A stretch of 62,474 nt of DNA, counting the filler, from Kipferlia bialata (Eukaryota): the NCBI GenBank assembly GCA_003568945.1. It is 4 parts of 4 records of this genome, joined end to end, with 100 filler letters (N's around TTAATTAATTAA, not from the genome) between each part and the next. Parts side by side here need not be neighbours in the genome. Positions count along the whole stretch, not along the records: positions 31,317 to 46,849 come from BDIP01000690.1; 3 more parts are not named here. One strand, written 5' to 3'. Below the pieces are notes generated by a model. That model saw only the letters and a list, made by a program, of their open reading frames with translations, had not been told where the DNA came from and searched no databases. Shown here in pieces: positions 13,999-56,951 of the stretch (position 1 is the stretch's first letter; every line of letters starts with the position of its first letter). Both the position numbers and the translations under genes were made by a program.

Positions 13999-14309
13999 GT
14001 GGAAGAAGGCGGCCCGTCATACATCATCCTAAGGGGAGGGGAGTGGAGAGAGGGGGGATGGGGGTATAAAAGCCCCTATTACCCCTAAAGAGATTGTCTA
14101 GGTATGCCTCACCTTGTTGTATGCCGCCCTGCCCTTCTGCACAGATAGTCCATACATATACTAGATAAACACTAGAGATATATACTAGAGAGAGTGCCTA
14201 GTAGTATCCTACCTTGTTATATGCCGCCCTGCCCTTCTGCATGGCCAGGTCCATATATATATAATAAGGTCGTAAGTATATAGATATATTACTAGAGGGT
14301 ATACTATAC

Positions 14310-15565: not shown

Positions 15566-15665
15566 NNNNNNNNNNNNNNNNNNNNNNNNNNNNNNNNNNN
15601 NNNNNNNNNTTAATTAATTAANNNNNNNNNNNNNNNNNNNNNNNNNNNNNNNNNNNNNNNNNNNN
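15566..15665. other. Artificial scaffold linker (N44-TTAATTAATTAA-N44)
   Basis: Exactly 100 nt with a six-frame stop 12-mer. Identical structure at three places, and the flanking scaffolds decrease in length (15565, 15551, 15533, 15525). Confidence 0.97.
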
Positions 15666-17222: not shown

Positions 17223-17405
17223 CAATACCTATCTGTAACCCCTCTCTAATTCTATACTTAAACCTCTCTAACCCCATCAGTCCCCATCCAGGGCATCCTC
17301 CTGTCCCCCCATCACCCCCCCCCATCACCCCTCTCTCTCAGTATAGTCACAGATATCCGCTCTCATTTACCCTTTGACCCCAGCCGTCCAGGGCATCATC
17401 GACAT

Positions 17406-17462
<57 letters not shown>

Positions 17463-18855
17463 GACCTCTTATATATACTTTTGACCTCTTTGACCCCAGC
17501 CGTCCAGGGCATCATCGACCTCTCCCCCGAGGTCATGTTCTTCTCTCTCTTCTGGACCCTGCTGGTCAGGTCGGCCTTTCTGTCCAGGATGGACTTCTCC
17601 CCAGAGGCCGTGAATAAGGTATTGGATTGAAAGTCGTTGTATATAGGTAGTATATATATATATGTGTATATGATATATAGTATATATATATAGTATATTG
17701 ATATTACGATAATCTCAAATCTCTACTCCTACCAGGTCAAGAGGGATGCCCGCCTTGGTGTGGCCGTTGAGACTGTTGGTGCCCTACTCTTTGTTGCTGC
17801 TGCCTCCACCGCACACTACATAGACCCAGAGAGGTTCCCATTCACATACGCAACTGTATTCGACTTCGAAGGTGGGTCAAACAGTGCATATATCCCTCTC
17901 ACTTCCCCTCTTCCCTCGTTACCTCTCTTACATCAGGCATATTCAACATGGTGTCCCTGCTCTGCGTCATTGCAGTCTCGGCAAAGGTATATGTGCTCTA
18001 TACCGTCGATATATACCATCAGTACCGTGTGTAAGTAGTACTGGACAGATATCCTCAATCGTTATGTTTCTCCCTCACCCCCCCCCCTTCCCCTCCCTTA
18101 CCCCTCAGGTCCTCTCCAATACCTCCCCGGCAAAGCTCAGAATACACCCCAGAATGACTAGTCAGATCATATCGGCCCAGTTCTTTAGGTACAACTGTCT
18201 CTCTCTCTCTCTCTCTCTCTCTCCCTTACCCTGTAGGTCCCTTGTCATGGTTCTCTTCAGTCTCTCTCTCTCTCTCTCTCTCTCTCCCCCTCACTCCCTA
18301 GGTCCCTTGTCATGGTTCTCTTCAGTCTCTCTCTCTCTCTCTCCCTCACTCCCTAGATCCCTTGTCATGGTTCTCTTCATTGTCTTCTGCCTCAAGGCCT
18401 GTGTGGTGCTGCTACTCAACGTCCTTCTATACCCAGACCATGTCTCGACAGACGTGTACAGGTGGGTGGGGTGGTTTGCATACTCTTATGCTATGTTAAC
18501 TCAATAGTCTGTTCCACCCTATATATCTGCCGTCTGGGGTCAGTGGTTTACATGTCAAGAGTAACGTGTGTAGTGTCCTAGTCAACTCTCTAACACCCAG
18601 ATACAGCACCCTGGTCTACTTCCTTGTCCTAGAGATAGTCCCATGCTGCTGGGCCATATACAGACTGCTCACGGCTGACAGGTGGGGTCATTCTCATTAT
18701 ACACTTGATGAATGAACGTATGATAGTAATAACAGTGTCTGTGTAGTCAGTGGTGACATAGTATTTGTCTCTTTCTATCCCCCTCACCCAGGTTCTTCAA
18801 GCGTAAGCTGAGGGAGTTCAACTCTGACAGAAGGGGCCTCACTGCATTCGCATAG
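16683..18855 (+). CDS. Multi-exon 7TM-type membrane protein, THH1/TOM1/TOM3 or GPR137-like
   Basis: About nine GT-AG exons join in frame to give roughly seven hydrophobic segments, including FVLRTILF, LSPEVMFFSLFWTLLV and a last helix YFLVLEIVP. Family assignment is from remembered motif similarity. Confidence 0.6.
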
Positions 18856-19159: not shown

Positions 19160-20194
19160 TTACTCGCTCTTCTTGCTCTTCTTGGACTTCTTCTTCTCCT
19201 TCTTCTCCTTCTTCTCCTTCTTCTCCTTCTTGACTGGGGGTTAGAGAGAGTGAAACAGAGTATTAGAGAGAGAGTATGCGTACCGCGCTTGGCCTCCTTC
19301 TCTGGGGCCTCGGCTCCCTCCTCAGTCTCAACCTCTCTGGAGCGCTTCTTCTTCTTCTTCTTCTTCTCTCCGTCCTGGGGTTAGATCCAAAAGAGACAAG
19401 TGTGGCACGTAGAGTGTATGTAAAAGTAGGCGTGTTGTGATGCATACCTCGGACTTGTCCTTCTTGCTCTTCTTGGACTTCTTCTTGGACTTCTTCTCTG
19501 GGGGTGAGGGGGTATACACGAAATACATAGACTATATGTAGAGAGAGACATGGACGTACCCTCGCCCTCCTCGATCACGGTCTCCTCAACCACAGTCTCC
19601 TCAACCACAGTCTCCTCAGCCTCCATGGCAACGTCCTCACCGGCAAAGTACTTGCCCTCGCGGGTCACCTGGTTCTGCTCGTTGTAGGCCTGGGGGTGAG
19701 GAATGGAAATATGGTACCATACTCGAAAGAGAGAGAGAGAGAGAGAGTGATGTGCGTACCGTGATGTTGTGGTCGATGGAAGACCTGATCTCCCTGGCCA
19801 CAGTGTTGCCCTCGAGCTCCCTCACCCTCTTCTCGAGCTTGGTGGCAACGTCCTCGGCCACAGTGATGCCCTAGCGGGTTAGAGATACATGTACATAGGG
19901 TGTGCATGCATATATGTGTATGTATATATATATGTAGGTACCTTGTCCACGCTGAATGCATCGACACGGGCACAGATGGCAGCACAGGCACCAAGGGCAC
20001 GGGCAAGCTTACCCTGAAGGTCAGAGACAACACACTTCGAGAGGGACATAAAGAGACAGAGGTACGACCCTGACTTTACATATGTACCTTGTTGTTGGGT
20101 GCGCACTGTCCGAGCATCTTGGCGTGGAAGATGATTCCATACTTCGGGGTGGGGGCCTTCTCCTGCAGGGCACGGAACAGAGCCTGGGGGTAAG

Positions 20195-20230
<36 letters not shown>

Positions 20231-20695
20231 GAGAGAGAATGAAGACACGCACCTTCTCGGCTCCGATGATCTGGATGGTGGATCCGGCGTACTTGGCAAG
20301 GGTGAGGAGGGAGCCGGCGTGGCCGATGAGACGGGCGGTCACGACCTAGGGGTGAGTATATATGTATATATATAGTATATACATATGTACATACATACAC
20401 ACACCTCTCCGATGATGGCTGCCAGGTTGGGTGACACAGCCCTGACCCTGTTGAGGAGGTACTCGTGGAGGTCAGCGTGTGCAGAGCCAAGGGCCAGCAC
20501 CTGCTCGGCAACCTCACCGATACTGGGGGGTCAGACGGGTGTAATAGATAGAGACATAGATAGATAGATACCAGGGTCAGAGGGGTGTAATAGATATATA
20601 TAGAAGTATATTGTGTGTGTGTGTGAAGGTACATACCGGGCCATATCCTCCTCAGTGATAGCGGCACCGATGGAGGCGTTTCCAGACTCGCAGAC
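19160..20695 (-). CDS. NOP58: Nucleolar box C/D snoRNP protein Nop58 (Nop56/58 family), 3' half; 5' part lies in the gap
   Basis: [62 protein letters not shown] (Nop domain) and a KKE-repeat tail ending at TAA 19160-19162. The GQ and LL residues favour Nop58 over Nop56. Confidence 0.88.
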
Positions 20696-21687: not shown

Positions 21688-24600
21688 ACAAGGTCCAGAA
21701 GACACTCTCCCTCAGCGACACCCAGTTTGTTTCCACTCTCTTTGGCAAGGAGTGGCAGCTTGCCCTCAAGGCCCCGCCCCTCCCTCCCAAGCCCACCATC
21801 CACGCCGTGTCCAAGAACCACCCGCTCTACACCAACACCCTCCAGTGCCTGCCCGACGACATGAAGAGCCGGGTCTTTGCTGTACGCACTGGCACTGTCC
21901 CCTCCCGCAAGGGTCTCTACCTCAAGGCCAAGCAGAACCTGGGTGTGGGTGAGCGTGTCCCCATCTACCATGGTACTGCAGAGCCCTGGCGTGCCACCCA
22001 GATCGCACTCAACGGCTTCGACCTCAACCTCAAGCTCAACGGCAGGGCACTCGGGGACGGTGTCTACACGACCTCCGACCCCAACACCGCCAACGGGTAT
22101 GCCAGGGGGAGCGGCTCCATCGTTGTGATGCGGGGCCTCCTCTCCACCGACATCACCCCGGCAAGCAGCGACGTCATCTTCGTCTACACCAAGCCCGAGC
22201 AGCTGTTGTGTGAGGCCATTGTGGACTTCTCAGCCGATACCTCTGGCAGAGAGGCTGCCGCTGATGCCGCCGCTGACGAGGAGGAGGCTGAGGCCCGGGA
22301 GCTTGCTGCGCTGAAGCGTGACATGAAGCAGAGAGAGGCCAGTCACAGGGTCACGATGACTAGGGACTGGAGGCAGATGCTGCAGGGGTATCTCGACAGA
22401 CTGCAGGGGTGGCAGAGGCAGATACCAAAGGGTAACAAGGGGGCAGCGGAGAGGGAGATGCTGGCCCACAAGGTGGAGCTGGAGCAGAAGCAGTTCGAGA
22501 GCCGCCTCCCCATCTACCTCCACAAGGGTGAGGTCGTGCAGCAGCTGAGGGCGAGAGATGTCCTCTTTGTGAGTGCACCCACTGGTACTGGCAAGAGTAC
22601 CCAGCTGCCTCAGTACATAGTGGACGAGGTGTTCCCCAACGACACTCGCCGTGTTGCTGTGCTGCAGCCAAAGCGCGTCAACTGCACCTCTCTCGCTGCC
22701 AGGGTGGCCTCTGAGCGTGGCGGTGTTGTGGGTGAGGAGGTGGGGTACAGCATGGGAGGCGGTGCCGTCTGTACGAGTGAGCAGACCCGCATTGAGTTCA
22801 TCACCCACGGTCTCTTTGCCTGCATGTCCCTCAACGGAGACCTCAGGGCCAAGTACTGTGCTGTCGTGCTGGACGAGGCCCACGAGCGGACCATTGAGGT
22901 CGACATGTCTCTTGCCCTGATCAGACGTGCCCTCAGGGGCGAGGGTCCACGGAAGGACACTTCCAAGGAGCTGTCCTTCAAGGTAGTTGTCTGCAGTGCC
23001 ACTCTGAGTGAGGACACAGTCGACACCCTCAAGGAGTACGTCGACCCCGACTGCACCAGGTCTGCTGTTGTGGAGCTGCCCAGCCACTCCTTCCCTGTCC
23101 ACGTCATGTACAGAGACCAGGCTCTGCTGCAGCAGGACGACAGCACCACCACCCAGGGCAACGTCATGACGTCTGCCGCAGTGGACACCGCCCTCCAGCT
23201 CTTCAAGCAGACAGACCGAGGCAACATCCTGGTGTTCCTGCCAGGTATATAGTATTGGTGTCTTCCACAGTCTCTCTCTCATGTTGTACTAATATTGTTA
23301 AAGAGCGGTGTTCAAATTGTCTCTAACGTCAGGCCACCACCACCTGTCCCTGGCCTTCGACTGCTTCCATCGCTACCTAGAGGGCGAGGCCGGTCACAGT
23401 ATCAACACTCTAGAGCACTCCCTCAGGTTCAACACTGAGAAGAAGGAGACGGTGGGAGTCTTCAAGTTCCACGGACGGCTCTCTGCTACGCAGCGCAACA
23501 TTGTCCTCAACTACGCGGACCACGGCTACGACCGCATCATCGTGTTTGCCACCATCGTTGCCGAGACTGGTATCACCATCCCTGACTGCCGCTACGTTGT
23601 GGACTCTGGACTCGAGCGGACTGTGCGGTGGAACGCAGAGCTGGGCTGCAACGAGATGCGCACGGCCCTAGCCTCCCGCTCCTCCCTCGAGCAGCGCAAG
23701 GGCCGCGCAGGCCGTACTGCATCCGGTGTATGTGTCCGCCTCTACTCCAAGGAGATGTTCGAGGAGGCGCAGCAGGCCCACCCCCCTGGCGTCACTGAGA
23801 AGAACGTCCAGACGGTTCTGCTGCGCCTACTGCACGAGCAGGAGAAGGGCAACGATATCAGGATGCCGGAGGAGATCCCCCAGAGCGCCAGGGAGGAGGC
23901 GACTGGTGTACTGCAGGAGCTAGGTGCTGTGTCGGAGACAGGGGAGGTTACGAGAGAGGGCAAGTTCATGCTCGACCTCGGCGTCGACTTCCGCCTTGCC
24001 TCCTTCCTCCTAGCCTGTGACAACCTAGGGTGTCTGACCAGTGGCAGCATCATCGTTGCCATGGCTACCACCACCGGCACTCTCACCATGCTACCCCTGA
24101 AGCCTGACTCCCGAAACAAGTCCCCGCTCAAGCCACCCCTGGAGGAGTACTTTGACTGCAGTGGCGACCACGTGACCCTGCTCAACATCTTCAAGGGATA
24201 CAAGGCGGCCAAGAGCAAGACCTCCTGGTGCATCGATCACGATGTGCCCCATGACACCATGAAGACAGTCCAGGCCAACCTCGATTCCATTCTGGAGCGA
24301 CTTTCTTCAAGGTATGCATATGTACTATACTCATGTACATATGTCTGCTACTGCTACGTGACAGTGTATGTTCTTGTTGGTCGCACTCCTAACATCCAGG
24401 GGCTGCAGTCTAAAGGATGATCCCGAGAAGACCGCTGAGCACGGTGGCACCCACAGCTGCATCCTGCGCTCCCTCTGCGTTGGGTTCTTCGACCACATTG
24501 GTGTTCTCAAGATCCCCTTCCAGCCTGAGAGTGGCGTCACCCGCCTGCTACCTGCTGCCCAGGTCGGGTCCAAGTGCGAGGCCCTCAACCAGTTCGTGCA

Positions 24601-26171
24601 GGACGTTGGCCCCCGCTGTGCCCAGGCCTCAGCGGTACCCGAGGCCGACGAGGTGCTGGTCCTCGTGGACAGACGCTCCGCCCTGCACAACGCACAGGAG
24701 GCCGCCGACAGGGATGACGCTGACCCTGGCGATGGTAGCATGGTTGTCTTCCACTCCCAGATGATGGTCGACAGTGCCAGGTACCCCAAGGTCCAGCTGG
24801 TCTCCTACATCTCGAGCGAGGACCTCTCTGACATATCACCCGGTATGCGCAAGGAGATTGAGAGGAGCAAGCGCAAGTTCTCTTGTGTTGTGCGGAAGGT
24901 TCCTCTCTCCAAGAAGCAGTGGGATGTGATTCGCAGCCACATGAGTGTGTTCATGTCCCAGCTGAGACGGATGCACCCCAACGCTGGTATCAGCGTCGAT
25001 ACCTCCGACCACCCTAGACGCACTCTAGTGGTGTCAGCCCCAGAGAGTTCCATCGACCACATCATGGATAAGGTAATTCCATTGTGCATTGCATGCATCC
25101 TTACTGTGTGTGTAAGACATCATATCATGTCACTAATGTCAGGTGGAACGCAAGCTAGAGACTGCGGAGACTGAGGATGTGCTGGTAGAGCTGCCTGAGG
25201 GCATGCTGTGCAAGCACATCTCCTCCAAGATGAAGAAGCTCAAGGCAGATCTGGAGGCCCTACTCCAGGAGTCTGACTGCTTGGGTCCCTTCAACGTCTG
25301 CCTGGACTTCAACGCCAACGCCATCAAGATCACTGCCGGAGGAGACGCCAAGTGCCAGCTGGCTCTGCTGATTGGCCGTGTCCACAGCTTCCTTGCCACG
25401 CACTCCAACAGCCACGTCACTCTATCCATGACGGCCGAGGGCAGTGAGGGCCGGGCTATCGTGACAAACCCTCGGTACCGCCAGCTTGCAACCTCAGCCA
25501 CCCCCCAGATAGTGCGAGGGGGCCGCAACAACATGATGCTGTTACTCTCGCACCACCTGATCTGGCAGTGCAAGTGCACAGTGTATGGCGGCATGGTGAG
25601 GGACTGGGTGATCAGGAACGAGGCCGCCAACGACATTGACTGTCTCCTCCCCAACATGAGCATGATGGTCTCAGTCAAGGGCACTATTGAGAGATTTGCA
25701 TCAAGGCTGGGCCTGCACAAGGTGGAGGAGAGGCAGCAGCCAAACAGCTACATGATCAGGTTCGGCGGCACCAGCGGCAAGGATATCCGGGTGGAGCTGG
25801 TCGACCCCCTGCTCCCCACTGCCGCCCCCCACTGCGACTGCTCTGCTGGCAATGTCTGTGTCAACGCCAAGGGCGTCATGGCCAAGAAAGCCCATGCCGG
25901 TGGGAACACAGTCACCCTCGCCGAGTGCATCACGCACATCAAGAAGAAGCAGTTTGTGTGCTTCCTCGACTGGAACGCCCCTCAGAACGCAGGGTCTCTG
26001 CTGGGTAGGGTCAAGGACAAGTACCTCGACCGTGGCTGGTCCCTGTTGAACCAGCTGCCCACTGCTCAGATGCGGCAGCTGCAGAGCCAGGCTGAGTACT
26101 CAAACTGGCATAGAAGGGGGCAGCTGCAGTTTGATCCCAAGTACACAGGCCTCGACTGGTCCAAGATCTAG
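21688..26171 (+). CDS. Fusion protein (>1400 aa, 5' end in gap): PARP-like ADP-ribosyltransferase + DEAH/RHA RNA helicase + possible KH-like region + C-terminal Pol-beta-fold nucleotidyltransferase
   Basis: Exons 21688-23244, 23333-24311, 24400-25072 and 25143-26171 splice in frame. ART motifs: YHGT, LGDGVY, A.GY, IFVY..EQLLCEAIVDF. Helicase motifs: PTGTGKSTQLPQY, QPKRV, LDEAHER, SAT, LVFLPG, AETGITIP, QRKGRAGR, DHVTLLNIF. NTase motifs: VYGGMVRDW..NDIDC..VELVD..CDCSAGN. Confidence 0.9.
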
Positions 26172-31216: not shown

Positions 31217-31316
31217 NNNNNNNNNNNNNNNNNNNNNNNNNNNNNNNNNNNNNNNNNNNNTTAATTAATTAANNNNNNNNNNNNNNNNNNNNNNNNNNNN
31301 NNNNNNNNNNNNNNNN
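31217..31316. other. Artificial scaffold linker
   Basis: N44-TTAATTAATTAA-N44. Confidence 0.97.
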
Positions 31317-31343
31317 CCCCCCCCAAAGGGGGGGGGTTCCCCC

Positions 31344-31374
<31 letters not shown>

Positions 31375-31394
31375 CCTTCACCATATATATAGAG

Positions 31395-31493
31395 ATGGAT
31401 ATTAATACAGCAAACATAGATGGCAAGGTATGTCTAAGTGTGTGTATCTATTACCCCTATCAGCCGCCATAGTATACCCATGTGAGTCTAGTA

Positions 31494-31527
<34 letters not shown>

Positions 31528-33348
31528 CCTTAGGTCATGATTGCCTTCACCCTCACTCTCTCTCTCTCTCTCTCTCGAGTCTTCTTTCCCCTAGGTCATG
31601 ATTACCTACACCCTCACCACGGGTGGAAGCTTCGAGCCCAGTCTGGTCAGCGATGACAGGTGGGTATACATGCATGGTAATGTTTATACATTAATATATG
31701 TACCACATTTCTATATTTACATGTATATTCAACAAACCTTCGAGCCCGACCTGGTCAGTGAGATAGGCACATTACATATGTGTGTGTATATATGTAAATA
31801 TATATATGTATATATGATGATGTTTATACAATCATATACATTTCTCTGTACCTCTATATCCACATTTACAAGTATATTCAACATAACTCAGAGCCAAACC
31901 TGGTGAGTGAAGACAAGTAACGTATAGACGTTTTTGATTTGTGTTCTCACATATATATATATGGCCTGATGAGAGGTATAGAAGAGACACTTCTTTCATT
32001 GTCATTGTTATGTTGTCCTTATGCCAGGTCCACCCTGTTCGACAGCCTCCAGGACGAGTATTACACGCCAGGTATGTCTGGAATATACTCCTATTTCATT
32101 CTCTCTGCTTTTGAGTGATGGTCATTAATTATACTTGTTCATTCTCTACATATGGGATCTGATCATATATCGAGTTTCAAATCTCATGTCTTTCGATAGC
32201 CTTACTCTTAAGTCGTGTTCCCAGAGATTAATACATATCCCGCTTGGACATTCACATTAAGTCACAATACAACTTTTTACCTTTGTTTGAGTGCAATAGT
32301 AGACTTGTCAGTTTGTGTTTGTCTTTCCCTCAAGTAGTGTTCCCAGAGATTGGTGCTACTGCATATCCCACATGGACATATACATTAATGTTTANNNNNN
32401 NNNNNNNNNNNNNNNNNNNNNNNCACATGGACATATACATTAATGTTTACATCAATTATTTGTATATTGCTGAAGCATATCATCTTACCCTCTAGTTGTC
32501 TTCCCAGAGATTGGTGCCACTGCCTATCCTACATGGACAGTACCCAACAGACTGTACCTGGGGTGTGCACCTGTCAATGCCACAGCTAGGTATACTCTAT
32601 TGAGATATATATTGACTAAATTCCTCTTTGGGTATTAGTACTATTATGTACATGTGTATTTGAATATACTCACTCCAGGGTCTTTGCCGTCTCCAGTGCC
32701 TGGGAGGAGGTCGAGGAACACGCAGAAGGTATGTCTATAGACCATATGTCTCTCTCTCTCTCCCTCTACCTCTATTAAGATCCGCTATATCGACATGTAG
32801 AGTGTCTGTACACCCCTATTGTCCAGTTCTAAGTTTCTCTCTCTCTCTACACTCTTAATGTCCAGTTGAAGTCTACAGCGGCACTGGAAGCATCGCTGAG
32901 CTGCTGAGTCTAGAGGTATGTGCATTGTACATATGTTTGTAATACATGCTCAATGGCATTAGAATAGAGTTTCCAGATGCAACTCATATATGTGTCTCAC
33001 CCCAGGTCCCATTCCTGTCAGCCATCCCCAGCAGCATACACATATGCACAGGTACTCGCTCTATCTCGCTCTCTCGCTCTCTCTCTCTATATATACCCCC
33101 TAATTCAAGGCATCACACTGATACTCATCAGAAGTTCTTTTGAAACTCTTACTCTCAGGCACTGACACTGACGCTTCCAATGACAGTGGCATGTACCTCT
33201 ACGATGGAACATCTGCAAATGGTATGAATGCATTTATGTATATATTGACATATAGTGTGTACTCAGTGTATATGTGTGTACAACCTTGATCTACCTCTCT
33301 CTCTCTCTGTACACCCTTATTCCCAGGCGCCCTTGTCTTCTCAGACTA

Positions 33349-33382
<34 letters not shown>

Positions 33383-35685
33383 CCCTTATCTCAGGCGCCC
33401 TTGTCTTCTCAGACTATGACTCTGCGTCTACTGTCAGTGGCACAGACTATGCCCTGTTCAACAACGGGGGTAAGTGCTAAAAATACACTTTTATGACTAA
33501 ATTACCTTGGATATTATCGTTTTTAGGATATATAAAGGTGTATCTACTGTCTGTTGCACAGAATATGCCCTGTTCAACAACGGAGGTAAGTGCTAAAATT
33601 ACACTTGTATATGACTAAAGAACTTAGGTATTATCGTTTTTAGGATATATGTGGGTGTACATACTGTCAGTGGCACAGACTATGCCCAGTTCAACAACGG
33701 AGGTAAATACATGCTATGAATTCACATGTATAACATAGCGCTAGTCAGCAGTCTCTCTCTCTCTATGTCCCTTTCTCCGTGTGTTTTACCCCAGCGTATT
33801 TCTCCACCACCTCCAGCACCAGCCTTGACCTCGACCACCCCAACTGGTCAGTATCGGTCAACAGGCACACAGAGGGTATGAGTAAATGGTATATTTAGTA
33901 TATAGTATATAGATTATGCGTGATATATAGTATAGTATATGATATATAGTAAATGAGAATGGTATATAGAATACCCCAACTGGTCAGTAGCAGTCAACAG
34001 ACACACAGAGGGTATGGGTATATTTTATACTCTAGTAAATATGTGTATAGTATACTGAGACACTAATATGTATACCAACTGGTCAGTATCAGTCAACAGG
34101 CACACAGAGGGTATGTGAGTATAATGGTATACCTTGACACCCTCTCTCTCTCCCCTTACACCCTTAATACCAGCCACTCTGTCCTCCATTGCCGCCTCTG
34201 GTTATAGTGCCGCATATTGGGTCACACCCTCTGAGGCCACAGTCATCGAGGAGGAGTTCTTCAGCTACCAGGTACTTCTCTCTCTCTCTCTGTCTCCTGA
34301 CCCTTCTTTAAGTGAGAGGGCCATTCTTTAGCTACCAGGTATAGATAGTATGTATAAATGGTATATATATAGTATATATAGTATATATTAGTGTATATCC
34401 CTCTGAGGCCACAGTCATCGAGGAGGAGTTCTTTAGCTACCAGGTATATATACACACATATATATATAGATATAGATAGACGGATAGATATACTGATATA
34501 TAGATATATATATATATATCCCTCTGAGGCCACGGTCATCGAGGAGGAGTTCTTTAGCTACCAGGTAAGTATATATATCTCTCTCTCCCTCTACGCCTTT
34601 TTTCAATGGTGGTTCTCTCTCTACCCCCTTAATCCCTAGGTTGCCATGCTAGGAGGTGCTGCCTCTACCACTCTCTCTCTCTCTCTCNNNNNNNNNNNNN
34701 NNNNNNNNNNNNNNNNNNNNNNNNNNNNNNNNNNNNNNNNNNNNNNNNNNNNNNNNNNNNNNNNNNNNNNNNNNNNNNNNNNNNNNNNNNNNNNNNNNNN
34801 NNNNNNNNNNNNNNNNNNNNNNNNNNNNNNNNNNNNNNNNNNNNNNNNNNNNNNNNNNNNNNNNNNNNNNNNNNNNNNNNNNNNNNNNNNNNNNNNNNNN
34901 NNNNNNNNNNNNNNNNNNNNNNNNNNNNNNNNNNNNNNNNNNNNNNNNNNNNNNNNNNNNNNNNNNNNNNNNNNNNNNNNNNNNNNNNNNNNNNNNNNNN
35001 NNNNNNNNNNNNNNNNNNNNNNNNNNNNNNNNNNNNNNNNNNNNNNNNNNNNNNNNNNNNNNNNNNNNNNNNNNNNNNNNNNNNNNNNNNNNNNNNNNNN
35101 NNNNNNNNNNNNNNNNNNNNNNNNNNNNNNNNNNNNNNNNNNNNNNNNNNNNNNNNNNNNNNNNNNNNNNNNNNNNNNNNNNNNNNNNNNNNNNNNNNNN
35201 NNNNNNNNNNNNNNNNNNNNNNNNNNNNNNNNNNNNNNNNNNNNNNNNNNNNNNNNNNNNNNNNNNNNNNNNNNNNNNNNNNNNNNNNNNNNNNNNNNNN
35301 NNNNNNNNNNNNNNNNNNNNNNNNNNNNNNNNNNNNNNNNNNNNNNNNNNNNNNNNNNNNNNNNNNNNNNNNNNNNNNNNNNNNNNNNNNNNNNNNNNNN
35401 NNNNNNNNNNNNNNNNNNNNNNNNNNNNNNNNNNNNNNNNNNNNNNNNNNNNNNNNNNNNNNNNNNNNNNNNNNNNNNNNNNNNNNNNNNNNNNNNNNNN
35501 NNNNNNNNNNNNNNNNNNNNNNNNNNNNNNNNNNNNNNNNNNNNNNNNNNNNNNNNNNNNNNNNNNNNNNNNNNNNNNNNNNNNNNNNNNNNNNNNNNNN
35601 NNNNNNNNNNNNNNNNNNNNNNNNNNNNNTCTCTCTCTCTCTCTCTCTTATCCCCAGACTCCTCTCAGACCTACATGCGTCTCTC

Positions 35686-35718
<33 letters not shown>

Positions 35719-35996
35719 TATCTCCAGACTCCTCTCAGACCTACATGCGTGTGGTTGACACCAAGCCATACAACATGGATGGGTGCTATGATCTGACACC
35801 CACCTCATACACTGTAGGGACAGGTAAGTGGATACTTGTGTAAACTTATACATCTATTAATATATATATATATATGTATTATGTATCTATTTATATATAT
35901 TGCATCATTAGTATATATATATAATATGGATGGGTGCTATGACCTCACTCCAACATCATACACAGTGGGGACAGGTCAGTAGATTAGACTAGTAGG

Positions 35997-36040
<44 letters not shown>

Positions 36041-36751
36041 TGTATTAATAGTATATATATACAACATGGATGGGTGCTATGACTTAACACCCACTTCCTA
36101 CACTGTTGGGACAGGAATGGACATACACATATTCAAGTATATATATGTGCAGTTCCCACACTATTTTCCGTCATGTGTTCAATATATATTATATATTATA
36201 TTATATATATTATTATTTATATATAATATTATTTATATATATTATTATTTATATATATTATATTATATATTATATTATATATTATATTCAATATAGTTGG
36301 TTCATACTCACCCCCCAGACTATGTCATCATCACTGGCTCTGTGGATAGAACACTGCTTTTGTATACAATTTTAGAGTGTTTAGTTGAAGGATCATCTCT
36401 TTCTTAATTTTTGTATAATCTTACCCCAGACTCTGTCATCATCACTGGCTCTGTCGATGGAGACGCCCTGGACCTACGTGAGTGCATCAATCTCTCTCTC
36501 TCTCTCTCTGTCGCTTATGGTCATCATATTCCTTTCTCATTTGTTTCCCTACTCTCTCTCTCTCTCTCCCTCTAAACCCTTATGTCAGCCACCTTCCTCT
36601 TGGCCCGTATCTGTTTGTTTGATGGAGACACCCTCAAGTACTGCAGGTATGCTCGACATCTTCAACCAGATATATTTTTCTCTCTCCCTCTAGCCCCTTA
36701 TTCCAGCTCCTCCATCGAGTATGACCCCAACACCTTCCCCCTGACCATCAT

Positions 36752-36783
<32 letters not shown>

Positions 36784-37709
36784 GCTACACCCTTATTCCA
36801 GCTCCTCCATTGAGTATGACCCCAACACCTTCCCCCTGACCATCATCCTGTTGGTCGCACTCATGGTTGTCACAACAGCAGTCTCAGTGATGGTTGGTAT
36901 CGCAGTCTATAGGTACATACAGTATATAGTAGAAACACATATCATAGGTATATATTCTCTGAATTTGTTATGATTCTATATTTGATGAATTGTGCTCTTT
37001 CTAGACTGACTCTAGATGCTGTGCCAGGCGTAAGCAGTCCAGACTCGTCATGATGAGTGCCCAGCAGCAACACTTAGGTAATGTATGTATATATATATAT
37101 ATGTATCCAATTACTATATATAGTATGTGTGGGTTAACATGGTATTTCTCTTTGGTAGAGTGGTCATGATGAGTGCCCAGCAGCAGCACCTAGGTATCAA
37201 GCCACATATAGTTCAACGGTGCATATAGTAAATAGTATTTATGTTTCTCTCTCTCTCTCTACACACTTATTACAGGCCCCCAGCCAGTACAGGGCTCTCT
37301 CACCCTCAACAGGCGGAATACAGCCAAGCTGGCACAAGGGGTGACAGCTAGAGATAGCGCAGCACTCCAGGTACTGTATATATGTGTGTGCATAAATTCA
37401 TGCAAGGGATAGTGTCCAACAACCAGAGACTCAGCGTCTATGGAATATACATTATTCTGGTATATGCCATGTAGCCTTGCAATTGTATATATGTACATAT
37501 TCTTACTAATGGCTCTGGATATCATAGGTAAATATAGGTATATATGTCCTTTGTCTTATGCCCCAGGCCATACAGAGTGACATGTCCATGCAGTATATAG
37601 TATATATATATAGTATATATATATATTTATTTATACTATATCATCCTTTATTATAACCCCTCTTTGTCCCTGTTCTTATGCCCCAGGCCATGCAGAGCGG
37701 CATGTCCAT

Positions 37710-37745
<36 letters not shown>

Positions 37746-38249
37746 CGTATGCACAGGATTACACATCATATTCTTATTACACTGTCCCTGTTCTTATGCC
37801 CCAGGCCATGCAGAGTGGCATGTCCATGCAGCAGCAGAGGGAACTGGCAAAGAGTCAGGTACTGTACTACTATTGTATATATGAGAATAATACTGTAGTT
37901 ATACATTGTTCCTATATGCTCACCCCAGGCCGGTAACCCCGCTGCCCCCACCCCCCCAGGGGGCACACCCACCATGCCCAGGCCCAGGTACTCTCTCTCT
38001 CTCTCTCTCTCTCTCTGTATATATACATAGGCCCAGGTACTCTCTCTCTCTCTCTCTCCGTAATACTATATATACTTAGTATAGACATTTTCAACATGTA
38101 CCACTTGTATCACATGTATTTGTTTACATGTATGCCCAGGTACTCTCTCTCTCGCTATCTCTCGCTCTCTTCTCATCCTAACTCTATTGTATGTATATAT
38201 ATATATATGTATATATTGTATCTCTCACACCCACCATGCCCAGGCCCAG

Positions 38250-38288
<39 letters not shown>

Positions 38289-38567
38289 ACATCAAGCTAA
38301 GTTGATCCTTGGAGTTGCTATATGGAAGTAATACTATGATGTCAATAGTATAAAGTAGTGATCTACTCTTATCCCCAGGCTGCTCCAGAGGCGTGGCACC
38401 CATTTTTTTGAATTAGATTTAAAATTAAAGAATATAGTAATGTATTCGTATATACCATATGTCTTATCCCCAGGCTTTTGCAGAGGCGTGGCACCTATGC
38501 AGGCACACCCACAGTACCAGTAGCTACACTCGCACCAACTACTTCTACTGCAGAGTCCCCAATTTAG
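31395..38567 (+). CDS. Type I membrane protein encoded by more than 20 micro-exons (partial at 5' end and across gaps)
   Basis: Exons of about 30-130 nt join in frame (for example 31595, 32496, 32679, 33395, 33795, 34173, 35728, 36430, 36801, 37016, 37277, 37805, 37929, 38474). They give an S/T/D-rich ectodomain, TM LTIILLVALMVVTTAVSVMVGIAVY, RCCARRK and a Q/P-rich tail ending at TAG 38565-38567. Confidence 0.7.
33430..33710 (+). repeat. Three tandem ~117-nt units spanning an exon 3' end, donor and intron start
   Basis: ACTGTCAGTGGCACAGACTATGCCCTGTTCAACAACGG(G/A)GGTAA recurs with donors at about 33470, 33586 and 33703, and the intronic part is also similar between units. Confidence 0.9.
35769..36114 (+). 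repeat. Exon 3' end plus two synonymously diverged intronic copies
   Basis: The 18-codon block YNMDGCYDLTPTSYTVGT occurs at 35769, 35920 and 36060, separated by (TA)n-rich DNA. Confidence 0.92.
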
Positions 38568-38889: not shown

Positions 38890-41800
38890 ACACTGAGCCC
38901 ATGCTCAAGGTGATCCAGTAGCTGGTGTCAAACAATTCAATTCAACATAAACAGATATACACAGGATAGAGTACACAAAGTGATGTACCTGTTCAAGCGC
39001 AGTAGCTGCAGAATGTTGCCCATTCTCCTCTACATATGGGTAAAAATGTACATTGCTCTCCTATTACACACATATATACTTCTATATTGTATTGCTTTTA
39101 CCTGCACTAAAGCTGGCAGCTGCAGTATGTTGGCCAGTCTCCTCATTGCAATAAGGAGAGGCATCCCATAGGCACACATGTACCAGTCCCTGTCCCTTCT
39201 ATTAGAATAGGAAAGAACATACTATATACCTACAGTTGTATAGTATGACAACGTGTATAAAGCACATGCTATTAGGAGACGCATCCCATAGGCACACATG
39301 TAACAGTCTCTATCCCTGTGGTCAACTGTTATCCATACAGTTTGAGAGTCACAGTACATAACAGTATAGATGTGAGTAGGTAGGGGCATCACATAGTCAC
39401 ACATGTACCAGTCCCTGTCCCTATCATTAGTCTCCTTCAAACTCACCAGCGCACCCTAGACTTATGCACATTTGTTAACATCATCAATATCGCCATAATG
39501 AGTAAGAGTGCTCACCTTGGCCCCTGCTGCTGCATCGATGTGTGACTCAGCCCATGGGCAGCCTCATCAGTGGACATCAGCAGACGCTGCCTCTCGTTCC
39601 ACCTGAATAGTTAGCATTGATACACGGTTACAGTAGACGCTGTCTCTCGTTCCATCTGAATGATTAAGAGAGTAGACACCACACGGTTTAGTGACAAGTC
39701 AGACGAAAGAGGTTAACATCAGCAGACGCTGTCTCTCGTTCCATCTAAACAATCAGGAGAGTAGACACCACACTACTAAGTTACAAGTCAATTGAAAGAT
39801 AGTTGTTCCATCTGGAAACTAAGGAGAGTAGGCACCACACAATTCACCGACAAGTCAATCGAAAGAGGATACCTGTGACAGGGCCTCTGGAAACGGTACC
39901 CGATACATCCAAGAGCCAGTGTGCCACGGAGTAGAAGAGACTGTACCGTGCCTGCGGGGGAGAGAGAATAAGGTCTATACATATTGATGAAGAGAGAGAG
40001 AGGGAGGACAATATACACTAATAGAGAGATAGAGAGTCAAGGTATGTCTCGACATACCTATCACACAGTTGGTCATACTAAGACAGCTTGGGAGCACCTC
40101 TTCCACCTGTTATCAGACCATTAACAACCTCAACACTCTGTGACAAGGTATGTGACAAGCACGTACCTCAGGCCTGCTGCAGTAGAGCACCGTCTCCCTC
40201 TGGTCATCTGGGAAGGCTTCTAGCCACACAGAGAAGGTCTGGGTTAAGATAGTCAGAGAGTATTCCAGACAGATAGTAATGAAAAATATCAACGGTAATG
40301 CATAAGAAGATAGTATCCTCAACCTGCATCTCCCTGACCAAGGGTAGGGTTGCTGATATGGCTGTGGCACAGACAAGACTCTGGAACAGTTCTGGGCTGT
40401 CAGGACTCTATGTAGCTAACAGACAGTGACTCAAACCCAATAAGTATGATTTGTGGACATAGTGTATTGGGTCTATACAACATACCTCCCGACCCAATTG
40501 GGAATGAGTTGAGCAGGCCAGTGGCCTTGGCCAGCACCATGGCCAGGCTGGGGTTAAATATTGCTTATGATATAGAATATTATATATGGCAAGGTTTATT
40601 CTCCATGTATAGTGTAATCCATAATAATTAGGTATTACTTGGCCAGAACCATGGCCAGGCTGGAGTTAGAGTATATATACATTAATACGCTATATATATT
40701 GTTATCTAGTTCTGGCAGAACCATAGCCAGGCTGTAGTTAACAATGCTTATGAAGTGGTATACTCTATATGTATAGTATATTCCAGAATAGGTTCATCTT
40801 GGCCAGCACTACGCTAATGTACCACAGAATATCAGGACTTCGGATTCCGAAGACTGCTGTGAAGGATATATGTATATATAAACACTGCTTACCCTGCTGC
40901 GTGTCTCTGCTTGCACTTGTCCCTGTGCATACATGCTGACATAAGGGTGTAGAGAGAGAGAGAGAGCGAGAGAGAGATATATATAGATAACTTGTCCCTT
41001 TACATGCATAAATACTGGGCGTTAATAGATAAGACTAACTCAAAGTCTTTACGATCCAAGTTGTGTTTGCGGGAGTAGAGAGAAGGAAACACAATCAGAG
41101 AGCGTACACCATACCTCATATATGTATGTCTACTATCTCTTGACATATGTGATTGTGTATATATATGCTATGTATAGGACCATGTATATATATGTGGGTG
41201 TACTATACCTGACACATGCGTCCTGTTGTCCCCAGTCACATCTTCAGAGACACTCCACCTTCAGGGTTAGTCACTAGTACAACCACGAGTTCGTGTGGGA
41301 ACTATGTGCTCACTAATGCATATGTACTTGCACATTGAGCCTCTATACAATGGCATATATATATATATGTATGTATGTATGGTATGCTACTTAATTATAC
41401 CCCACCTCCCCAGGTCCTGCGATATGGCTGCCAGGTAGAGGAAGAGAATCTAGGGTTAGAGAGTTCGATGGGAAAGAGCGTTATCATTATGGACTATCTA
41501 CTGTGACTAGTGGTTGAACATGCAAGTGACAACGTCACCTGTTTCGATGGCATGTACATTCCCCTCCCCACACTTGCCCTGATGCTGTGCACAATGTGAT
41601 GGGTCATGTGCAGGGCAGAGGTGGCAGTCATGTCTGATAATGAGTGATATAGTATACGTGGAGTGTATTGAATACACTCTGTATTTACAGATACTGATGT
41701 TATGTGTATACTGTATAGATTCATATTGTATGTGCACAACGTGATATGTCATGTGCAGGGCAGATGTGGCAGTCCTGTCTGAGGTTGAGGTCTTATTAGA

Positions 41801-43430: not shown

Positions 43431-46400
43431 TATGAGAGTAAGTAAAGGGGTATGCATGATACATGCCGGGCATGTAACATGCCCTGACTATGTTACATAA
43501 TGATATCGCTAAATTTTCTATTGAAGTATGTATCAGTGTCAGATTAAGGGTATTTTAAACCTTGTGATTGTGGGTGTGCGCACGACTCCTACGTGTCTGG
43601 TTGGCATACCCCCTCATGCATCTGATTGTTAGCCACAAAACCTAGACACAGACACAATGAAGCAAACTTGATCGTGGACAATATACTAAGCGATTTGACA
43701 ATTACGGTAGCAGTGGCAATAAGAAATTCTTATTATAAGAATGCACCTCAGATGCTCTCTGAAGTAGTACACGCAGGTTGCTCCTCTGATGAAGATTGGA
43801 CACCCGTTCTCATCTCTACTGTCCACATAGTGGGCAAACGTGAAAGGGGCTTGGAACTGGTATGAGTCATGAATCGTTTTAGTATTCTTAATAAGAATGT
43901 CATATATAACCCTGACTCAGGACTCCTGAGTGTGTACATTGGGCTAGTCACACCTGTTTCTTCCTCGCATCTCTGAAACTCACTCCACCTGCGGCATACC
44001 TGGGTCAGTGTCATAACGGGAATACAAAGTGTTGAGTAACTATGATAACACATATATAATGTAAGTAGTGCACTGTGCCTGTATGGTGGCTCTGTGGCCA
44101 GGTGGTTCCACATCACATCGGAGGTGACATTTAACTCGCAGTGCACGGACTGGGAGATTAGATCTAGCAATGTACTGGAATCTATTCTAAGAATAGACTA
44201 TTCTTACTACAAGCGGTAACACCAGTACCTCAATAATGGCCAGACTTATAGAGTAGACAGAGGCGGCGATTGCAATACTTTCATAGTATAACACAATATC
44301 ATACAACTGTTACTGCTATGTATATGCATCAATATTGCCATACCATAGTGTCGAGGTGCTGCAGCCATGCTGCTTCTGGCTGAGACTCCTTGAGCATGAA
44401 CCACCTGTATATTAGAGAGTAGCACAATATATTATAATATGGTGCATGTCAGGTAATCTACTCTATCTATGGACTCTACCAAGAATATGGATCGATTTGG
44501 ACCAGAGTATTGGTAATATACTTGTTAGTCAGGTTATGACAACGTATCTGTCAACAAACACTGATGACTCACGTGTCTGCAGTCACTTACATACTACTAA
44601 TATTGATAGGGATACTGATACCTGAACCACTGCCTTGTCACGTAGATGTACTTCTGGGAGAAGCCTCTAGGCCCCTGGGTGACCAGCACATAGGGGGACT
44701 GTGGGTTAAGGTATGTTCTTTTGTAGTGCTCGAATCAATGTGTTGTGGTATATTCAAATTAATAATTAGAGAATAATTGAAATAATTGAAATAATTGAAA
44801 TAATTGAAATAATTAATCACATTGAATAGAGCAGCACGTACAATAGTAATATACATAAGAGATATATACATATGAACTATGCATGTATATAGTATAACAG
44901 TAACCTCGAAGCATCTCGCCAGTGCCCCTTGAGGAGGTCTAGGTACAGGGGGCCACATCACAGAGGGGGTCCTAAGGGGTAAGATGTACTACAACATATA
45001 CGACTACAACTTGAAGTCAACATGAATCATACGACTATATCTGAAGGGAGTCATAAGTTGTGAGTTGCATTCGACATCATCCATATGAATCATATGACTA
45101 TGTCTGAAGGTTGATATGGTGGCAGTAATTGTGTAGAACAGATAGGTGGTCCCATTACAGAGGACTTCTCTGAGAAGAAATCCTAGTAGGTCAGTAATAC
45201 TCACACGTGAAGATGTCCGAATACACCTCTATGTGGATATACCCTGATATAGAGAGAGCTTTATATATACATATATATATATATATATATCTGAACTATG
45301 TCGTTTGAGTTAACCACACTTACTTAACCGGAGGCGGTGGGAACGGTGCTGGGGGCATGGGCACATGGTTGAGTCTGGGGTTAGATACAGCAGTTACAAA
45401 GGAGAGAGAGGGAGACATAAGCGTGGACTACTGACAAGGCAATCTGGGTGACATATACTATATATACTGTGTGATACAGATGTATTTAGTATATAGTAGT
45501 CCTTATACCTAGTTGACTGGGGCACTATGATCCATCCCTCTTCCTCCACGTCCAAGGGACCTGGGATCTTATACGGGTACTTGCGCAGTATCTGACCGGA
45601 TACCAAGTGGAACTGAAGTGAAAGATGTAGTATGAATATCTAATGAATATCTAATGAATATCTAATGAATATCTAATGAATGTCCAATGATTATCTAATG
45701 AATATCTAACGAATACTAATGAAGCTACTGTCATACTGCTCTACATTATCTAATGAATATCTAACGAATATCTAATGAAGCTACTGTCATACTACTCCAC
45801 ATTTACATACCTGACTCAGTCTAGCTGCATCGTGAAGTTTCGCAAACTCAGTTGCCAGTCTATCGAGTAAGGAGAGCAGTGTACCAACACCATCATGCAC
45901 TGCTAGACCTAGGGTGAGAATACGACCAGTACTAATATTGGAAGTCTGTGGACAGAGTAGCGATGGTTCTTAGATTCTACAACTAGACTATTGGTTCGCA
46001 ATGCTAACTTTGCACTAGTGCGATGAGACAGTGGTGAATAGTTACTGAAAGGAATCTCTTCCTGGAACCAGACTTGAAGGAGGATAATATACCATACCTC
46101 TGCTTAGTTCAGTGCAGTGTGGTGGACTCAGTGTCTGTGCTCGAAGAGGAACGGCGAGCGACGTTGTGTGTATCCATAACCTGACGTAAGACCACCAGTC
46201 CCAGCAATCAGACAAGAAGGGGTGTATATGTGTAAGATATACTTGTATTGCAATGACATAAACAAATATTGTACCTCATTTCCATGCATCTCTTCGGAGA
46301 TATCACCACTCGACTCACTGCTCTGCCTAGTCTTCTCGGCAGCAGGGGGTGGAGGCCTGAGTCATCAATACATTGACTCAATATATATCATAGTGATTGG

Positions 46401-46849: not shown

Positions 46850-46949
46850 NNNNNNNNNNNNNNNNNNNNNNNNNNNNNNNNNNNNNNNNNNNNTTAATTA
46901 ATTAANNNNNNNNNNNNNNNNNNNNNNNNNNNNNNNNNNNNNNNNNNNN
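46850..46949. other. Artificial scaffold linker
   Basis: N44-TTAATTAATTAA-N44. Confidence 0.97.
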
Positions 46950-55519: not shown

Positions 55520-56371
55520 CTCAGTTGAACCGCATGTGAGCTTAGTTCAGAACTGAGTGCTTGACTAGCCCTTGGAGGGGCAGAGTCATTATGCTATGGT
55601 GAGAGAGTCTTAGTAACTGTATTCGTAATTGAGTGCCAATTGCTTCAACTACATCATGTTAACTGTACATGTATATATGTAGTATATAGTATGTATTTAC
55701 ATGCATATTCATACCTATCCTATTATACCTGCCCCAATAGAGCCCTACAATCATGTACTGTACCACACTCAATACTGAGTGATGTACACACTATATACAC
55801 AAATATCATGTCTACATATCCTATCTACCTGCCCCAGTATAGCCCTGCACTCCTGCACTGTACACCTAGTCTGACAGGTGGGGCACAGGTTGTGGTAGTG
55901 GGGGTCTGAGGTAATTCATTCACTGATATTATGGACTATTCCACATACGATAATGTGTTGAAACCAACGTCTATGAATTGTGTGTGTATATATTCATGTG
56001 TGTGTGTGTGTTGAGGGGGGGGGGGGTGAGACGGATCCTTGCTGCCGCATCCACGATTATAAGTTGAAGCAATCATATTGATTCTAATACTTCATACTGT
56101 ACATATCTCCCAACTAGCTCTCTGTGCAGACATGCCCCACGAAACAGAGGGCATTTACATATCCTCTACAAATATATACGGCACACATACATATTTGTGG
56201 CATATTTATCTACATGTATATCTGTATACTTCACCCCCTACATATGTATGTGTATATATACCCTACCTAGCTCTCTGTGCAGACATGGCCCATGGAACAC
56301 ATGACCACATGGAAGGATGAGAAAGGGGTCTATTATGAGGGAGGATCATATATATACCAATGAGAGAGAGC

Positions 56372-56405
<34 letters not shown>

Positions 56406-56951
56406 CATGCCCCATTGAACAGATGGCCACAGGGGGTGATGAGGAAAGGGTCTGAGGTCAGTAATACGTATAGATATATACCATATATAGAAGAGAGAGA
56501 GAGAGAGAGAGAGAAGCGGATCTGGATGTGAGGTATATGCATGGAGAGATACAAACAAAAATATGACCGGTGGGTGGTAATGAATGATATATATAGTATG
56601 AGAGAAGAGAAAGAAAATATGGGGAGAGAAGGGAGAGAGGGAGCGGGATGTCCGAGCACCGATTGATTGTGTGTAGGAATGTGTTTAGATGGGGGGAGGG
56701 GGGGGGTACACGTTACCCTGAGAACCAATGTCACGCAATAACTAGTGATAGCACTTTTGTCGATATACGGAAGTAGGGAGTGACCAGATAGAGAGAGAGA
56801 ATAGTATACATATTGAGATATGGGAGGCGGTTATTGTGCACTATTCTACCAGTATTGGTCACTCACATGAAGAATCTGAGAACCACAGAGTGTTATACAG
56901 CATGGGCCTACCTTGTGAATGTAGTGAGCAGATGCTGCAACTCAAGAGCAT
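55520..56951 (-). CDS. N-terminal RING-H2 finger exons (probably the 5' end of the ARM-repeat gene)
   Basis: ATG at 56951. Exons at about 56951-56912, 56329-56268 and 55905-55829 splice to MLLSCSICSLHSQDPFLILPCGHVFHGPCLHRELDPHYHNLCPTCQTRC, a C3H2C3 ligand pattern. Confidence 0.8.

Follow-up and report, generated by a model that had tools for sequence, protein, structure and literature searches.

How does a copy of an exon end, lying inside the adjacent intron, come to differ from the working exon at silent positions? The question is raised by an intron of the Kipferlia bialata gene KIPB_003559, in which the working exon at 32496 (tag|TT GTC) is preceded by a copy at 32335 (aag|TA GTG). As the initial annotation had described, 5 of 44 nucleotides differ between the two, and all five differences are silent, including the one in the valine codon split by the intron (GTT/GTA).

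We analysed this locus within one 62-kb window (62,474 nucleotides, the whole stretch of joined genome pieces), to which all counts below refer and which holds 9 gene pieces with 67 curated exons and 58 introns. Gene models were assembled manually with the help of a small gene finder, and two of them match deposited proteins. The focal gene, intron-rich and on the plus strand, corresponds to GIQ82423.1, the one protein returned by an exon query, which contains two hand-built exon chains of KIPB_003559 letter for letter. Its product is a predicted single-pass membrane protein of 451 amino acids, with no significant Pfam match and with only itself as a relative among 7995 scored candidates. The second matching model equals GIQ82425.1, a MATE transporter; the protein clusters of both genes have one member each. 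According to excerpts of the genome paper, K. bialata is a free-living fornicate with 124,912 GT-AG introns, its published assembly was built from Illumina reads with SPAdes, and k-mer peaks suggest diploidy (PMC5874029). The lineage has a reduced spliceosome, given as 87 of 174 proteins in an excerpt of a second report (PMC6679479). Over 31840-33890, we compared contigs of two runs, X1 (DNA) and X2 (putative RNA), with 16 of 649 pieces listed. As X1 is possibly the source data of the window itself, it represents a second assembly rather than a second sample.

Copies of exon ends within introns

A frame-blind census scan identified 44 partial copies of the 67 exons, 16-57 nt long, 23 of them of exon starts and 21 of exon ends (Table 1), while 0 of 451 control pairs of an exon and an unrelated intron scored. 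The earlier observation that copies occur at both ends of introns therefore holds far above chance. Their polarity is strict: all acceptor-side copies (23/23) lie upstream and all donor-side copies (21/21) downstream of the working exon, at 60-300 nt from the working junction and in the same intron, and a gapped scan returned zero copies on the wrong side. Copy-bearing introns (24 of 58) measure 155-664 nt, compared to 50-281 nt for the other 34, and are longer by about one unit per copy. The far-end joint falls into a dinucleotide repeat in 14 of 44 cases, against a background of 8.8% (P = 1.5e-5), and three of the 44 copies have lost their GT or AG. Sequences below the score threshold (32213, 31891, 34324, 17284, 41867 and 41009) were kept outside the counts, as were the exon start at 34640, the repeats at 39000-39430 and two frame-ambiguous exons of gene D.

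Table 1. Positions of the focal exon, of exon-end copies and of scaffold linkers in the window.
Feature	Position	Strand	Remarks
Working exon, 94 nt, KIPB_003559	32496..32589	+	X2 record 7 matches 32494-32587, 0 other letters
Acceptor-side copy after aag, first 44 nt of exon 32496	32335..32378	+	5 silent, 0 non-silent differences
Older acceptor-side copy after aag	32213..32250	+	Tail in common with 32335 copy
Collapsed repeat at N gap, likely about two hidden 106-nt units	32369..32449	+	X1 cycle, 26-nt overlap
All 20 scored KIPB_003559 copies	31534..38403	+	
Other copies among these 20	31534, 31735, 35658, 36319, 36707, 37157, 37567, 37687, 38226, 38379	+	
Acceptor-side copy of exon 33395	33327..33355	+	29 nt identical, (CT)n end
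Two donor-side copies, end of exon 33395-33469	33543..33702	+	GT on each, mostly non-silent
Two donor-side copies, end of exon 33795-33875	33973..34110	+	Spacing identical in X1 record 6
Three donor-side copies, end of exon 34174-34271	34324..34564	+	1-2 silent differences per 45 nt
Two donor-side copies (56 nt), end of exon 35728-35823	35919..36114	+	Window sequence
12 copies, MATE transporter gene GIQ82425.1	47257..50002	+	
Three copies, one gene	55729..56451	-	
Four acceptor-side copies, gene adjoining KIPB_003559	39631..41778	-	Hand gene model
Two donor-side copies, XPG_N-domain gene	14113-14252	-	
Three acceptor-side copies, membrane-protein gene	17384-18330	+	
Scaffold linkers N44-TTAATTAATTAA-N44	15566-15665, 31217-31316, 46850-46949		Flanking blocks non-contiguous in genome

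Polarity and intron length bear on the idea that the copies are remnants of whole-exon duplicates, both of which had long been in use before one end was lost. Such a history would explain a long protein-level constraint on each copy, but it should also have left donor-bearing remnants upstream and acceptor-bearing remnants downstream, of which there are none among the 44; nor does it fit introns that are short when free of copies and otherwise lengthened unit by unit. We regard it as highly improbable.

In the focal intron, the 32335 copy is itself preceded by another one at 32213, which had initially been listed as a shorter copy. It is present, but extends further than that listing gave, to 36 nt. 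A 6-nt deletion that keeps the frame and several replaced amino acids distinguish it, and it reads VFPEINTYPAW where the working exon reads VFPEIGATAYPTW. The intron further contains an N gap with the same 26 nt repeated on either side. X1 records 1 and 3 cycle at this gap, at depths of 926 and 769 compared to 414-424 for single-copy pieces. Record 3 carries the acceptor and first codons of the working exon followed by later codons of the copy, record 1 has 3 other letters in the intron tail (32477-32480), and X1 contigs contain the copy-type codons GCT, GCA and CCC running into intron sequence. Behind the gap there are likely about two additional units of 106 nt that carry chimeric copies, their number being estimated from depth, and we read the chimeric units as products of an exchange between copy and working exon within 17 shared nucleotides. 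As to the initial caveat that raw reads might not contain the copies in this arrangement, the N gap matters: copy-type codons are present in the X1 DNA contigs, and the window probably lacks these additional units. The join of the 32335 copy to its upstream intron was not among the X1 and X2 pieces listed.

It seemed conceivable that a short-read assembler had placed alleles or strains in tandem, given an Illumina/SPAdes assembly, as the excerpted genome paper has it (PMC5874029), and an N gap with a duplicated overlap in the very intron under study. The X1 contigs, which were built independently, argue against such an artefact: record 6 (863 nt) spans the copies at 33543-33702 and contains in all four donor-side copies at the spacing of the window, with 0 other letters and at single-copy depth (424), and at the N gap X1 shows more units, not fewer. 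An assembly artefact is thus scarcely credible.

Copies seem to be unevenly distributed among genes. The Nop56/58-like gene at 19164-20447 (-; weak Pfam Nop match) has eight short introns and zero exon-end copies, and the exons at 53196-54389, which we take to be armadillo-like, likewise have none. Elsewhere in the window, an intron-free open frame of ~3590 codons (1736-12508, +) comprises a long acidic helical middle, an Ig-like stalk and a C-terminal membrane segment after a Cys motif that presumably resembles the GAIN/GPS motif of polycystin-1-like proteins. An intron-poor DEAH-type helicase region (21700-26171, +; Helicase_C, HA2) is accompanied by further C-terminal frames, and its N-terminal part has what we take to be a resemblance to a PARP-like catalytic domain. 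Three direct repeats of 49-51 nt lie at 39004-39430, and an intronic 11-nt tandem array at 45630-45790. Within KIPB_003559, X2 record 7 extends ~297 nt beyond the first modelled exon on its upstream side (31317-31595); the 5' end of the gene may be truncated at the scaffold start here, and an exon-like piece at 31395-31427 is possibly a donor-side copy too. An exon start at 34640 continues into a (CT)n tract, followed by a 942-nt gap (34640-35629). In the deposited protein this start is treated as an exon of 16 nt (VAMLG), but it is possibly an acceptor-side copy, with the working exon inside the 942-nt gap.

Silent and amino-acid differences

Divergence between copies and working exons had initially been characterised as synonymous-only. 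Across the window this generalisation fails: 4 of the 44 copies are identical to the working exon and 16 differ only silently, but 24 carry amino-acid changes, as do 10 of the 20 scored copies in KIPB_003559, some with indels. The silent pairs quoted at the outset (37068/37184, 38475/38380, 36809/36714 and 34228-34564) are all present, although the copy at 37157 also changes CTC to GTG (L to V). Over all copies, 77 silent and 55 non-silent differences yield a dN/dS of 0.19. The separate comparison of the two sides that the initial annotation had proposed gave 0.197 for acceptor-side and 0.185 for donor-side copies, with ratios of 4-fold to 0-fold differences of 5.8 and 5.1, so that both sides behave alike.

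Neutrality is the wrong null for such values, because the working exon itself accumulates silent changes; if the copies are dead and only the working exon is under selection, a 4-fold/0-fold ratio of ~2 is expected. We found 33 of 825 0-fold sites (4.0%) and 46 of 212 4-fold sites (21.7%) to differ, a ratio of 5.4 (95% CI 3.6-8.3; family bootstrap 2.8-10.5, P(<=2) = 0.002), which amounts to 4.3 (2.5-7.5) outside KIPB_003559 and to 3.75 (2.4-6.0) without the two strongest families. Simulated dead copies that were passed through the same detection steps (4 x 300) gave mean ratios of 1.9-2.0 and reached 5.4 in 0 of 1200 runs, and with base matching 16.5 4-fold differences were expected against the 46 observed. 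The silent excess is therefore beyond chance, even above the null that allows for silent change in the working exon. A stricter test, conditioned on bases within families, counted 70 of 123 differences as silent against 52.6 expected (P = 3.7e-4); P rises to 0.071 when the two strongest families are left out and to 0.15 outside KIPB_003559. After trimming of 5 nt at the joint, the corresponding values were 1.8e-5, 0.013 and 0.098. A single silent/non-silent ratio for all copies was not rejected (P = 0.077), while an origin from diverged alleles, discussed below, predicts a mixture.

The sharpest case is the pair of donor-side copies at 35919 and 36059. They differ from their working exon by 9 and 6 silent changes, respectively, and from each other by 9, with 0 non-silent differences in all three comparisons (P = 8.7e-6 for this family under the dead-copy null); the copy at 36059 has lost its GT. 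In the MATE gene, one copy (49034) shows 6 silent and 3 conservative changes, another (49322) 3 non-silent and 0 silent ones; like many of the copies taken singly, the latter has the look of ordinary decay. Amino-acid replacements are overall milder than random (mean BLOSUM62 0.14 versus -0.45, P = 0.016), and there are no stops among 36 changed codons (P = 0.26 taken alone). Well-flanked indels were seen at 32213 (-6 nt), 47612 (+3), 17284 (-3) and 49438 (+4), in addition to one of +1; in-frame indels look common in the copies, though the numbers are too small. Codon bias and CpG effects were considered and dismissed as causes, as silent changes have no GC direction (34 versus 28) and, in CpG context, copy and working exon differ at 0 of 32 0-fold sites and 8 of 13 4-fold sites.

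In the flanks of the copies, positions that are constrained in any working junction are kept, whereas free positions have diverged. AG letters differ in 1 of 46 and GT letters in 4 of 42 cases, compared to 40 of 84 (48%) at donor positions +3 to +6 and 61 of 230 (27%) at acceptor positions -3 to -12; dead copies of the same age would give a difference of ~8% in the flanks. Some copies have 0-2 changes over 40-45 exon nucleotides, yet from its third or fourth base onward the intron that follows is unlike that of the working exon, and the intron starts after the GT of the copies at 34324..34564 look unrelated.

These data allow an assessment of the most ordinary explanation, by which same-chromatid tandem duplication produced dead copies that were identical at birth, with repeat-rich flanks mutating faster. 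Polarity, repeat-rich joints, the 4 identical and thus young copies among the 44, and the mostly non-silent cases at 49322, 37567 and 33543 are all accounted for in this way, and most families taken singly are compatible with the null. However, dead sequence whose flank and exon part share one age is capped at a ratio near 2, and we observe 5.4, a value absent from all simulations, together with flank differences of 27-48% against 4% at 0-fold sites. Moreover, nine silent and no non-silent differences could not arise between two dead copies, nor could 48% at donor +3 to +6 beside so few 0-fold changes. We consider plain dead copies unlikely.

An equally protein-like divergence would be expected if the copies had been derived from paralogous genes elsewhere by ectopic exchange, and the MATE gene does belong to a family. 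Against such a source, KIPB_003559 and one-exon queries returned only the gene itself and a MATE exon query its own protein alone, in searches limited by length and word; copies also occur in the XPG_N gene. A homolog search with the XPG_N exon gave no result. A paralogous source appears very improbable to us.

Splicing around the copies

The initial annotation had implied that the copies might be used as decoy acceptors. In the sole spliced contig, X2 record 7, eight exons are joined and only working-exon letters appear. At 32496 and 33395 this contig takes the last of the available acceptors; it runs on through the real exon at 33394-33468 and at 33469 takes the first donor. X2 contigs give no cover of the copies at 32116-32460, which is no evidence on use, because contigs drop rare forms. 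For 10 of 23 acceptors and 12 of 21 donors, the copy's own site equals or exceeds the real site in score, but a frame-compatible partner site at or above the 10th percentile of real sites is found for 0 of 44. For the 32335 copy, the best frame-compatible donor behind it scores -7.4, compared to 3.6 at the 10th percentile of real donors, and read-through from this copy enters the working exon out of frame. The implied use as decoys is thus not borne out.

Use of a more hidden kind, be it as rare alternative or mutually exclusive exons or through a swap of exon ends at the RNA or DNA level, would place the copies under protein-level selection and leave the same signature as diverged alleles, with amino acids and GT/AG kept. 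The real-strength sites of many copies and the weak in-frame upstream AGs of those at 35919 and 37157 could be read in its favour. On the other hand, the partner sites are lacking and the 32335 read-through is out of frame, the spliced contig has working-exon letters only while DNA contigs hold the copies at single-copy depth, GT or AG is lost in three copies, and selection acting via occasional recombination would probably need a rate that homogenises the copies as well. Hidden use is, in our estimate, quite improbable.

That decoys of real strength are bypassed for the last acceptor and the first donor (32072-32495, 33222-33394 and 33470-33794) suggests that exon definition operates in this protist with its short exons (43-210 nt).

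Origin of the copies and comparison with known systems

Duplications of a splice junction leave the mRNA intact if the exon-proximal site wins, which explains the strict polarity. Boundary duplication alone, however, leaves the excess of silent and intronic differences unexplained, making a second, diverged working junction the simplest source. The differences between copies and working exon are those expected of a working allele, at silent and free intron sites and not in amino acids or GT/AG. We thus propose, with confidence evenly poised between acceptance and doubt, that they are spliced-out junction duplicates, many of which were copied from, or later overwritten by, a strongly diverged working allele or homeolog of the gene via unequal exchange between chromosomes.

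In the proposed sequence of events, an exon end with its intron flank would be duplicated into the same intron, always on the side that is neutral for the mRNA, as in all copies found here. The joint, often situated in a (CT)n or (TA)n tract, might be created by slippage, template switching or end-joining; the enrichment of such tracts is observed, and its cause would be one of these. The exon-proximal site would win, as it does at three junctions of one contig, presumably owing to exon definition and NMD, and the copy would remain untranslated. If the duplicated piece had once worked in another haplotype, it would bring along silent and free intron differences while amino acids and GT/AG were kept; alternatively, the copy may have been overwritten later by an allele over the exon part only. 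Slow decay, to judge by changes at ~3-4% of constrained sites, and recombination with the working exon may then have followed, the latter giving rise to chimeric units. Refreshing from a cDNA template was rejected as a cause, as the copies retain GT and the acceptor region even in places where an adjacent exon could not have been their source.

Several further observations favour an allelic source. In the minus-strand gene at 55729..56451, which carries what we take to be a RING-like motif, independent copies upstream and downstream of one exon share GCA (Ala), while the working exon has CCA (Pro); replacements are mild, no paralog was found, and the chimeric units at the N gap in X1 DNA contigs indicate that copy and working exon have exchanged sequence. 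On the other side, X1 contained no second allele, with bins over several exons (31840-33890) at single-contig depth in contigs that drop variants, the protein clusters have one member each, and two metagenome scans for another Kipferlia found no relative. The weaker outcome of the base-conditioned test and the single ratio that was not rejected also count against it, as does the small sample of 62 kb and 9 gene pieces. Two further points speak against it. The silent diversity needed, ~0.15 on average and 0.45-0.66 locally, is very high. In addition, intron bases beside the GT differ more (48%) than 4-fold sites (22%), unlike in Paramecium, where an excerpt of a recent preprint gives introns as less diverse than 4-fold sites (bioRxiv 10.64898/2026.05.26.727746). 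This contrast requires either that introns change fast or that older copies were overwritten in their exon part only. A wider view, which we hold only tentatively and a little below even confidence, is that these introns are a stacked fossil record of haplotypes, that unequal exchange between deeply diverged chromosomes, placing working exon ends of other alleles at both ends of an intron, is their main route of growth, and that a reduced spliceosome manages with strict exon definition.

If the pattern is genome-wide, ~40% of introns in intron-rich genes would carry decoy splice sites of real strength, and splice-site choice by exon definition, scanning or NMD would become testable in a lineage with a reduced spliceosome. 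Through the silent excess, one assembly would suffice to trace former allelic diversity, and recombination among diverged lineages, in a group whose sex and population size are poorly known. Should the haplotype record be real, one genome would provide allele pairs by the tens of thousands, and direct evidence that a fornicate recombined or hybridised in the past. The N gap illustrates how gene finders and short-read assemblers can go wrong on such introns.

We know of no dense, splice-junction-bound record of many haplotypes inside introns, and a literature search, with subscription journals mostly outside its coverage, returned no description of the pattern in Kipferlia or elsewhere. Tandem exon duplication is said, after work of Kondrashov and Koonin in 2001 and Letunic in 2002, to give rise to mutually exclusive exons. 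These resemble the K. bialata copies in being neighbouring exon-like copies with a dN/dS well below 1, but they are whole and have both splice sites, whereas the copies described here are halves with one site and a strong partner in 0 of 44 cases. Unequal exchange or template switching between homologous chromosomes yields tandem duplications in which the second copy comes from the other chromosome together with its differences, as may have happened in K. bialata.

Recombination has been linked to the transfer of introns between paralogs, and tandem genomic duplication of an AGGT-bearing exon segment to intron gain, in the excerpted account of PMC3443670. As described there, intron gain has in common with our case a short tandem duplication, an extra copy that is spliced out and an unchanged mRNA; it differs in that a new intron is formed from exon sequence, while in K. 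bialata an existing intron is lengthened and the exon chain stays the same.

A close parallel was described by Borensztajn et al. (2006, PMC1557585) in human F7, whose intron 7 holds a 37-bp VNTR with a first unit lying across the boundary to exon 7. Judged by the available excerpt of that report, both systems have the end of an exon, together with its splice site, repeated head-to-tail within the neighbouring intron, and the IVS7 pseudo-sites are silent with the most upstream donor in use, just as the exon-proximal site is used in K. bialata at three junctions of one contig. F7, as given in that excerpt, involves one locus, the donor side and near-identical minisatellite units, whereas in K. 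bialata copies occur in 24 of 58 introns and at either intron end, with units of ~70-150 nt, diverged flanks and codon-structured differences. What is known, then, is a boundary repeat of the F7 kind, akin to intron gain; what is new is that the copies do not diverge as dead sequence.
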